This document shows, in pieces, positions 23,519 through 25,147 of a stretch of 64,000 nt of DNA (position 1 is the first letter of the stretch; every line of letters starts with the position of its first letter). Origin of the DNA: a virus (Duplodnaviria; Heunggongvirae; Uroviricota; Caudoviricetes). A program made the translations under genes and the position numbers. The stretch is from the IMG/VR virus record IMGVR_UViG_2609460125_000009. The stretch is one strand, 5' to 3'. The notes under the pieces were generated by a model. It was not told the origin of the DNA, searched no databases, and was given only the letters and a program-made list of their open reading frames with translations.

Positions 23519-24294
23519 AAACATGGTGATAAGTATTTACTTACTTATCTTTTATGTATAAGATGACTTTGTTTTCGTTGAGACGCGACTGTTTGAACTT
23601 AAATACAAGTGCAAACGAAGAAGTCTATCTGGCAGTAGCCTAATAAGCCAAACACCAGCGAGGTCAGTTTCCAGCCTCGTTACCGAAATGGGACACACTG
23701 AGCGAGTGTGATTGCAGAACGCAGGAGGGAACATTCATGTTCCCTCCGATGAAGTAACAGAATGGGCGGTTGGTATATTTTCAACTCCATATGACTCCCG
23801 GATTCTTAGCCACTGACCGCCCATCCTGTTACGTCATTTTGTTCAATTATGTCGTTTATACTGGGTTAAAAAGCGGCGACGTAGCCCGGCTGGTATGGTT
23901 AGCCAGCACACAACGTTGAGGCCATTACATTTTTATCAATTCTAAGGTTCTATTCACAGAGATACCGGCGAGCGTTGATATGTAACATGTTGGGCAAACA
24001 TTCAATCGGAGTAGTGGCCTCAACGTTGTGAAGACAGGATTGTTGTGTAGGTTTAACCACTGTTGCCATTGGTGCCTGTTTTCACAACAAATGATTCCAT
24101 ACATCACATTGTATAAATTACAAAGTAGGTGCTGTCCTCAGAAACATCATCTACTTAAAGATTTTGCCTTCTATTGAGCGAAGTCGAAAACGTCTGGCAC
24201 TAACGGAAAGTGCAAGTAGCGGTGTGTTTCCTGGCAGAAACTAACACCGCCGCGATTGGCACTGTTGAGTAATAAATACTGGCAGTGCTGAATT

Positions 24295-24369
24295 GATGGT
24301 GTAGCTCAGCGGTAGAGCAGTTGGCTGTTAACCAACTGGTCGGTGGTTCGAATCCACCCACCATCGCCA
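24295..24369 (+). tRNA. tRNA-Asn (anticodon GTT)
   Basis: Cloverleaf reads directly: acceptor GATGGTG/CACCATC, D-arm GCTC...GAGC, anticodon arm GTTGG-CTGTTAA-CCAAC, T-arm GGTGG-TTCGAAT-CCACC, discriminator G, encoded CCA. Confidence 0.85.
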
Positions 24370-24374
24370 ATTTA

Positions 24375-24461
24375 GGGGAGTTAGTCCGTAGAGGTAGCGG
24401 GGTAGACTGTAAATCTACTGTCATTGCGACTCGGGTGGTTCGACTCCATCACTCCCCACCA
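24375..24461 (+). tRNA. tRNA-Tyr (anticodon GTA), long variable arm
   Basis: Acceptor GGGGAGT/ACTCCCC, anticodon loop CTGTAAA, long extra arm, T-loop TTCGACT, encoded CCA. Confidence 0.8.
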
Positions 24462-24465
24462 AATT

Positions 24466-24541
24466 GCCGGTTTAGCTCAGTTGGTAGAGCGCCTGCCTTG
24501 TAAGCAGGATGTCAGCGGTTCGATCCCGTTAACCGGCACCA
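24466..24541 (+). tRNA. tRNA-Thr (anticodon TGT)
   Basis: Acceptor GCCGGTT/AACCGGC, D-arm GCTC-AGTTGGTAG-AGC, anticodon arm CCTGC-CTTGTAA-GCAGG, T-loop TTCGATC, encoded CCA. Confidence 0.85.
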
Positions 24542-24905
24542 ACACAACAGGTAAGAGCATTGGGCGAATCGGCGATACTGACCCACAAGCCCGTAAATCG
24601 ATAGAGTCAGACCAGTGCTCTTACCGTTGTGAGGAAGTGCAGCTCTTTGAAGCAACCAGAAGATAAGCATCTGGCTTCACAACACAACGATAAGATCATT
24701 ACGGTTAATCGTCGTTCATGTGCACAATGACTGGTCGAAAGGTAGTGATCTTACCGTTGTGGTGGATTCGCAGACTGATGCGATAGCTTTCTTGGATGTT
24801 AGGGAAATGCGGCCGCAAATCTTCCCTTTCGCGAGCGGTGATCGTCCGTAGTCCTAATTGGCTGCACCGTATGCCGGAGATTCAGTACCGGCCACCACAA
24901 CGGCC

Positions 24906-24992
24906 GGAGAGTAGGGAGCATGGTGCTCAAGCGGTCTTGAAAACCGTCCCATTGCGCAAGCGATGATGGTTCGATTCCATTACTCTCCGCCA
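24906..24992 (+). tRNA. tRNA-Ser (anticodon TGA), long variable arm
   Basis: Acceptor GGAGAGT/ACTCTCC, anticodon arm GCGGT-CTTGAAA-ACCGT, long extra arm, T-loop TTCGATT, encoded CCA. Confidence 0.8.
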
Positions 24993-25147
24993 GACACAGC
25001 GTTGAGCGGTTTGGCCTTTTAATCACCCAGATTAAGACTCCGCTAACATAAACCAGACCGCTCAACGCTGTGATAGACAATTACGGCAGACGTTCTTAAC
25101 CATAGCTTGCTAACATCCTAGCAACACTTTTTTTCAGCGCAAAATTC

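Follow-up and report, generated by a model that had tools for sequence, protein, structure and literature searches.

A 64,000-nucleotide stretch of the Caudoviricetes record IMGVR_UViG_2609460125_000009 in IMG/VR (hereafter, the window) encodes a cluster of tRNA genes interleaved with four long hairpins, which we term A1-A4 (23909-25072). These hairpins are homologous copies of one conserved sense-strand RNA stem-loop family, whose covarying stems share a near-invariant CACAAC/GUUGUG base and which recurs across several groups of phages, phage-plasmids, and prophages. As for their role, the balance of the sequence features tips modestly towards their being RNase III-type processing stems in a polycistronic precursor of tRNAs and small RNAs (sRNAs), with the identity of the enzyme being our prediction.

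All four long inverted repeats claimed by an earlier first-pass annotation of the window are present where it placed them, as seen from the sequence itself, a repeat search, and alignment of the arms; its boundaries stand for A1, A2, and A4, with only the end of A3 needing correction from 24760 to 24761. They lie, like the tRNAs and all the other features of this operon described below, on the + strand, with stems of 20-21 positions and loops of 38-82 nt. A1 (23909-24030) has a 20-bp stem (CACAACGTTGAGGCCATTAC/GTAGTGGCCTCAACGTTGTG) with one U·G pair and an 82-nt loop, and its 16-bp perfect core CACAACGTTGAGGCCA is exactly as annotated. A2 (24543-24631), which starts 1 nt past the CCA of tRNA-Thr (tRNA end 24541), forms 20 pairs with an A bulged after CACAAC (CACAAC-A-GGTAAGAGCATTGG/CCAGTGCTCTTACC-GTTGTG) around a 48-nt loop, while A3 (24683-24761) pairs at 19 of its 20 stem positions (one A·C, one U·G) and encloses an inner hairpin in its 39-nt loop. 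A4 (24995-25072), which starts 2 nt past the CCA of tRNA-Ser (tRNA end 24992), has a 20-bp stem with one U·G and a 38-nt loop; its stem base is the variant CACAGCG/CGCTGTG, a compensatory replacement of A-U by G-C. The shared termini CACA(A/G)CG...CG(T/C)TGTG had been correctly described. The RNA folding energies of the four range from -30 to -47 kcal/mol (-46.7 kcal/mol for A1), with z-scores of -5.0 to -9.7 relative to dinucleotide shuffles (A1, -6.7; A2, -5.9; A3, -5.0; A4, -9.7), and none of 200 shuffles folds as stably as the native sequences. The segment 23749-25072 also holds all three of the longest long-loop inverted repeats of the entire window, and a covariance model of the hairpin family (R1) matches the window solely at the A1-A4 sites, with a filters-off search also having been run. 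Taken together, the folding statistics, the ranking of the repeats, and the exclusivity of the model place A1-A4 far above chance; the presence of just four matches in 64 kb further means that the family is not a dispersed repeat.

The arms of A1-A4 align both with each other and with those from other phages, namely the P1-like phages P7, D6, and vB_EcoM-813R1, the SSU5-like Klebsiella pJN2-26, Sasha, PJ16, and Phapecoctavirus DE16. The first-pass annotation had named a lack of arm conservation in related genomes beforehand as one part of what would refute its proposal; the arms are instead conserved, and with covariation. In an alignment of 16 sequences 97.5% of the cells are paired and both sides have changed at 11 of the 20 pairs; in a non-redundant alignment of 36 sequences that includes lambda the corresponding values are 97.0% and 15 compensatory pairs out of 21, which were reached by none of 500 shuffles, and sliding the partner strand reduces the paired fraction to 33-54%. 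The covariation is concentrated in the middle of the stem, with the stem base CACAAC/GUUGUG, A12-U, and U19-A being near-invariant in the larger alignment. Stem position 18, near the top of the stem, is U·G in 24 of the 36 members, C-G in 7, and U-A in 5; each of A1-A4 carries the U·G there and, by helix and stem base, position 18, and sense placement alike, belongs to the CACAAC...GUUGUG family.

The conservation is strand-specific. R1 scores the window copies 8-18 bits higher on the + than on the - strand (A1, 60.5 against 47.5 bits; A2, 63.0 against 45.4; the + strand scores of A3 and A4 are 63.2 and 55.9). Where a tRNA lies no more than 1.5 kb away, better pairing is found on the tRNA-sense strand for 55 unique copies and on the antisense strand for 8, with 10 ties; the sense strand has 108 G·U pairs and the antisense 29. 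The asymmetry in G·U pairs and the gain in score on the sense strand therefore place the constraint on an RNA helix. This bias argues against an inverted repeat of duplex DNA, with which it is incompatible, and a hairpin formed by that one DNA strand would be possible in principle. A permissive Rfam scan of the region and seven related loci recovered no family covering the hairpins, its yield being confined to tRNAs, weak fragments of transfer-messenger RNA (tmRNA), and STnc100 in an adjacent module; likewise, the literature searched gave no description of a widespread covarying family interleaved with phage tRNAs or tRNA-like sRNAs. The family is uncatalogued in Rfam, though the lambda hairpin has been part of the published lambda sequence since 1982 and RNase III processing of the leader bearing it has long been known.

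R1 recognizes members in phages resembling P1, SSU5, Sasha, and rV5, in many Enterobacterales prophages, and in lambda. A pattern scan of IMG/VR returned at least 120 contigs; 80 loci were examined with R1, which confirmed copies across them, often several per locus. Seventeen stretches came from a scan that took a single genome per species. Every confirmed match there with a genus name is from Enterobacterales (Rahnella, Pantoea, Erwinia, Ewingella, Mixta, Citrobacter, or Escherichia); two more, also confirmed, come from a Cellvibrionaceae metagenome-assembled genome (MAG) and an unclassified MAG, and one from a Dehalococcoidia MAG is marginal (27.8 bits). Three kinds of placement recur: 27 unique copies begin within -2 to +2 nt of the 3' end of tRNA-Thr, -Ser, or -Asn; in 29 unique contexts a terminator-like T-run lies 12 nt or less before the hairpin start; and in 49 unique copies the hairpin is directly followed by GTGR..., the start of a tRNA-like module of the B type described below. 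Klebsiella pJN2-26 shares a unit of tRNA-Ser and an A4-type hairpin with the window. Many of the IMG/VR matches are lambdoid prophages lacking tRNAs, where the hairpin lies just past the Q-controlled late terminator. The member in lambda itself (44787-44862; 51.9 bits with a model built without lambda) begins 7 nt past the U-run of tR' and is the sole duplex of ~20 bp between pR' and gene S.

Escherichia coli K-12 MG1655 has just weak or divergent members, in the cryptic prophages Rac and Qin. That of Qin, between cspB and essQ, is a 58-nt hairpin scoring 23.2 bits (locus L153, 11167-11224, - strand; genome 1,641,166-1,641,223); after it come a GTGGTG...CACCACAA module and then a terminator. 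The 3' arm of the divergent Rac copy (CACAACACGAAGGCGCA.../...TGCGCCTCCGGTTGT; 27.9 bits; locus L154, 9481-9566, - strand; genome 1,418,480-1,418,565) falls on the annotated 5' end of KilS, an sRNA reported to have its own promoter (PMC8175672).

We favor RNase III-type processing because it is an RNA helix on the sense strand that is constrained, because the length of this helix fits the enzyme, and because the lambda member follows tR' in the late leader. Intramolecular stems are cut twice, in a staggered manner, by RNase III, which accommodates ~22 bp (PMC6212723); A1-A4, with their 20-21 positions and at most one mismatch or bulge, fall within the size range of its substrates (~20-22 bp). 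Processing by RNase III in the lambda late transcript in vivo has been reported, with sites, by Daniels et al., 1988, as cited in PMC7547250, and we infer a link between these sites and the hairpin at lambda 44787-44862. We accordingly envisage the hairpins as punctuating a polycistronic non-coding transcript, being placed 1-2 nt after the 3' end of a tRNA or just past a terminator and often running directly into a tRNA-like sRNA module. Each helix would offer host RNase III a double-strand-specific site, in the manner of the stems at which rRNA operons are processed and of the lambda and T7 transcript sites. Cutting of both strands would sever the 3' trailer of the tRNA, letting exonucleases trim back to the CCA, would detach the downstream module, leaving it a new 5' end, and would release the loop as a small RNA. 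An endonuclease appears to be needed here because a stable helix 1-2 nt after the CCA would block tRNA 3' maturation. Certain features weigh against processing as the whole story: the weak sequence specificity of RNase III does not by itself explain the CACAAC/GUUGUG base and the U·G, which may point to an additional constraint, such as pairing with the GUUGUG-sharing B module or a specific protein, and the conservation of some loops suggests a function beyond that of a cutting site.

This operon includes four tRNAs identified by ARAGORN and Rfam, namely tRNA-Asn(GTT) (24295-24369), tRNA-Tyr(GTA) (24375-24461), tRNA-Thr(TGT) (24466-24541), and tRNA-Ser(TGA) (24906-24992). The hairpins and modules were also considered as hidden tRNA or tmRNA genes and rejected as such, as ARAGORN at its default settings and Rfam give these four tRNAs only and ARAGORN at 80% thresholds adds only dubious tmRNA calls. 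Three further elements do not figure in the first-pass annotation. One is a fifth, divergent long hairpin at 23749-23837 (GTAACAGAATGGGCGGT/ACCGCCCATCCTGTTAC; z-score -5.9), which matches R1 weakly (9.7 bits, E 0.05) and occupies the place of an A-like hairpin of P1-like phages, between a tag-like module and tRNA-Asn; its counterpart in P7 lies at 1167-1247 of locus L004. The other two show the opposite order of motifs, GTTGTG...CACAAC. The mini-B module (24626-24683) has a closing helix GTTGTGAGG...CTTCACAAC, whose GTTGTG is shared with the 3' arm of A2, and is conserved in P1, Sasha, and lambda-type leaders, with 94-97% identity in P1-like phages. The larger B module (24755-24903), whose 5' strand overlaps the 3' arm of A3, is organized like a tRNA: its closing stem of 7 bp (24758-24764 with 24893-24899) is followed after 3 nt by a D-like hairpin (24768-24783) and then by a large insert, and a T-like hairpin (24873-24892) abuts the 3' strand of the closing stem. 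Both inner hairpins covary among relatives. The non-coding operon ends in a terminator-like hairpin with a T6 run (GGGGCTTCGGCCCC; 25151-25170), which was read from the sequence and is missing from an automatic terminator scan; the promoter and terminator scan of the region was uninformative.

The B modules may bear on the origin of a known class of sRNAs. STnc100 and PasD are related prophage sRNAs (bioRxiv 10.64898/2026.05.13.724894). STnc100 is built like the B modules, having a closing stem of 7 bp, a hairpin on the 5' side, and another on the 3' side that lies directly against the stem; it differs in having its own terminator and no A hairpin fused upstream. A Fels/Gifsy-like prophage has both a B-equivalent module with canonical D-arm and T-arm sequences and full STnc100 copies downstream of a hairpin of the family, and the P7 variant of the B module scores 43 bits against Rfam STnc100 (RF02076), whose gathering threshold is 47. 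The window B module has no match at E≤1 to Rfam, STnc100 included. The tRNA-like B modules, the canonical arms of the prophage version, and the near-threshold P7 copy together suggest that prophage sRNAs of the STnc100/PasD type might have been derived from tRNAs. Such tRNA-like modules, closed by GTTGTGGTG...CACCACAAC, occur in the window (24755-24903 and 24626-24683), at L029 (- strand, ~3150-2950), and at L004 (2247-2362). Klebsiella phage BUCT_49532 (L008, 1863-2700) has a B-type module together with a terminator and a gene for an HNH endonuclease, all on the strand opposite to the surrounding tail and baseplate genes; this block looks like an inserted cassette with the RNA module in the 3' untranslated region of the endonuclease.

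Comparison with close relatives shows that the operon gains and loses whole modules. The region is 100% identical to plasmid NZ_CP081707 of E. coli AH04, where PGAP annotates only the tRNAs, while its identity to the SSU5-like phage-plasmids CMS-2020a and Cyrano (both Escherichia phages) is 96-98%; ~160 E. coli plasmids are related. The presence/absence comparison across related genomes called for by the first-pass annotation reveals genuine polymorphism, with the spacer between tRNA-Thr and tRNA-Ser differing by whole modules in genomes that are otherwise 96-98% identical. Cyrano has ACACAATT between the two tRNAs and lacks tRNA-Tyr; CP053388 lacks A2 and mini-B; and CP054387 has different hairpins and two B modules. 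The junctions of these insertions and deletions lie in or beside the CACAAC motif, and no target-site duplications are seen at the hairpin flanks or the polymorphic junctions. The repeated arms plausibly serve as short homologies for recombination that adds, deletes, or swaps modules; the gain and loss between near-identical plasmids would then arise because recombination joins paralogous arms. The tRNA content of the operon is itself modular: tRNA-Tyr(GTA) is present in the window (in the 24295-24992 cluster) and both CMS-2020a plasmids and not in Cyrano (L001, 2299-2546), where the Asn, Thr, and Ser tRNAs are spaced by just 2 and 8 nt, and the order in P1-like phages begins with Asn or Arg(TCT) and continues with an optional Tyr, Thr, an optional Ser, and then a tRNA with a CAT anticodon.

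The first-pass annotation had offered three interpretations of the hairpins, which fare unequally: RNase III processing is the best supported, a small stable RNA is compatible with processing, and a mobile element is disfavored. If the hairpins were primarily stable small RNAs or scaffolds, an explanation that we consider rather unlikely, the long stem would protect or present a functional loop, such as a binding site or a decoy for some factor of the host or the phage; RNase III would not be key, and the ends would come from RNase E, RNase P, or exonucleases stalled at the stem. Such a role would accord with the conservation of loop subfamilies across unrelated phages. In particular, Phapecoctavirus DE16 and Nonanavirus PJ16 share the inner hairpin of the A3 loop with the window, and it covaries: all three keep the A3-type inner loop G(U/C)GC(A/G)CA while its stem varies (UCAU/AUGA, CCU/AGG, CUU/AAG), and the loops of several family members elsewhere carry T-arm-like GGTTCGAATCC or GAGTTCGACTC hairpins; the conserved stem base and U·G also hint at specific recognition. 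However, the loops are mostly unrelated between subfamilies, leaving the stem as the common denominator, no Rfam family matches the hairpins, and the obstacle to tRNA maturation posed by a stable hairpin right after the CCA would persist unless an endonuclease removed it. The sharing of sequence with the B modules raises another scenario, to which we accord a still lower probability, wherein each hairpin is one half of an RNA switch: its 3' GUUGUG doubles as the 5' strand of the acceptor-like stem closing the B module that follows, and formation of the A hairpin and full closure of B would be alternatives governing folding, processing order, or read-through. GTTGTG(GTGG) is indeed common to both helices in the window (24754-24765), lambda, Sasha, PJ16, DE16, and prophages, GTGR directly follows the 49 unique copies noted above, and membership in two helices would explain why the stem base stays invariant amid a covarying remainder. 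Yet just ~4 bp are mutually exclusive, with A retaining at least 16 bp and B retaining GTGG/CCAC, so that both could largely coexist; moreover, A1 and A4 have no B module downstream, and neither a terminator nor a ribosome-binding site is sequestered.

The polymorphism described above, with its breakpoints at the motif in plasmids more than 96% identical, can also be read as the signature of DNA elements, either miniature inverted-repeat transposable elements (MITEs) or attC-like single-strand recombination sites that move tRNA and sRNA cassettes. The spread of the family over unrelated phage groups, the terminal inverted repeats with AAC...GTT ends, the lengths of 68-122 bp, and a tyrosine recombinase gene 1 kb downstream are all in keeping with this, but we hold it to be very improbable. 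The hairpins have no target-site duplications, and all copies in the 64 kb are confined to the non-coding operon, with none beyond 23909-25072; this lack of duplications and of dispersed copies rules out a MITE. The members are in a fixed orientation with respect to the tRNAs, have their G·U pairs on the transcribed strand, and occupy fixed syntenic positions, for example, directly past tR' in lambda. As for attC sites, the core consensus RYYYAAC...GTTRRRY is not matched (ACACAAC agrees at 6 of 7 positions and GTTGTGA at 5 of 7) and there are no conserved extrahelical bases; the nearby recombinase gives only a weak generic match to the integrase domain and none to an integron-integrase family; and no integrase is encoded near the lambda and Sasha copies. 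An attC/integron identity was rejected on the mismatch to the core, the lack of any IntI found, and the wrong strand bias.

A tmRNA-like tag frame, 300 nt upstream of A1 at 23611-23646 (GCAAACGAAGAAGTCTATCTGGCAGTAGCC TAA TAA), would encode ANEEVYLAVA followed by two stops; it lies in a tag-like module spanning ~23570-23750, with counterparts at L004:1046, L005:1051, L009:2221, L018, L070, and L082. Equivalent 10-codon frames precede arrays of tRNAs and hairpins elsewhere, encoding ANDDLMMAAA or ANDDLMMVAA in P7, D6, and many P1-like contigs, ANEERFLMAA in PJ16, and ANEEMYLAAA or ANDDVVLMAA in further contigs. The frames have conserved flanks (...GCGACTTTGCGGnTTTTTAGAAACTGACCAnnAAAGnTAAAT-tag-TAAnnGCCTGTAAGTCAGCAAGG), which we take to resemble the surroundings of the E. 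coli tmRNA tag. The tag-like module yields no tmRNA with ARAGORN defaults and has no canonical tRNA-like domain, and its matches to Rfam tmRNA_permuted and beta_tmRNA are weak. Separately, the 13-mer AATGATTCCATAC occurs three times (23078-23090, 24090-24102, and 25886-25898), each time with an ATG opening MIPY(I/L)...: an open reading frame (23079-23231) starts at the first copy, a 28-codon frame shortly before the tRNAs at the second, and a 10-codon frame at the third, which lies in a perfect 16-nt palindrome (25886-25918) ahead of the recombinase gene. The 13-mer could represent a repeated operator, a translation-initiation motif, or a set of gene-start remnants.

More speculatively, and at a level of confidence that we would call doubtful, the hairpins might punctuate a modular phage "RNA operon", in which CACAAC/GUUGUG stems delimit swappable cargo, direct its processing, and act as recombination linkers, allowing phages to shuffle the cassettes. 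The cargo may then include genuine tRNAs, tRNA-derived sRNAs (the B/STnc100-like modules and T-arm loops), and the tmRNA-like module with its 10-codon tag. If so, temperate phages as unlike one another as lambda, P1, SSU5, Sasha, and rV5-like phages could shuffle translation-related or anti-defense RNAs. The tRNA-like and tmRNA-like modules are candidates for the manipulation of translation by phages or for countering tRNA-targeting defense. If the hairpins are RNase III sites, they would explain the excision of phage tRNA clusters and prophage sRNAs from long leaders, including the lambda late leader and the P1 ban/tRNA operon, while their repeated arms offer a concrete mechanism for the mosaic turnover of tRNA and sRNA modules between near-identical plasmids. 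This family, which is absent from Rfam, is a marker of the non-coding operons that many phages, phage-plasmids, and prophages of Enterobacterales carry.

Several known systems resemble this one in part. The stable RNAs of the T4 tRNA cluster (species 1 and 2, rnaC/rnaD) are structured non-tRNA RNAs in a phage tRNA operon that are matured by host RNases; we detected no homology to them, T4-like phages are absent from the non-tRNA matches, and they are single genes as opposed to a repeated family of hairpins. attC sites are comparable as imperfect inverted repeats of ~60-140 bp with only the terminal AAC...GTT cores conserved and with variable cassette content, whereas the present hairpins lack the core consensus, extrahelical bases, and IntI, have a strand bias that follows transcription, and keep fixed syntenic positions. 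The ERIC/IRU, REP/BIME, and Correia-type elements are likewise short palindromes in transcribed intergenic regions; however, they are present in many dispersed copies and conserved over their whole length, in contrast to a covarying stem in one operon per genome. Functional parallels are the RNase III stems of rRNA operons, T7 early RNA, and the lambda N-leader and sib, which are also intramolecular duplexes of about two turns that bracket or separate stable RNAs in polycistronic precursors. There, both strands are cut, as we infer for A1-A4, with the T7 sites differing in having internal loops and a single-strand cut; the rRNA, T7, and lambda N-leader and sib stems show no sequence similarity to the window hairpins, to whose family the conserved base and U·G are peculiar. 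The hairpin of the lambda late leader, by contrast, has a homologous stem (CACAAC-A-GGTAAGAGCATTG...CAGTGCTCTTTCC-GTTGTG), lies in the sense orientation in a non-coding leader, and is similarly followed by a mini-B module; lambda has this single copy past a terminator and no tRNAs, whereas the window has four copies interleaved with tRNAs.

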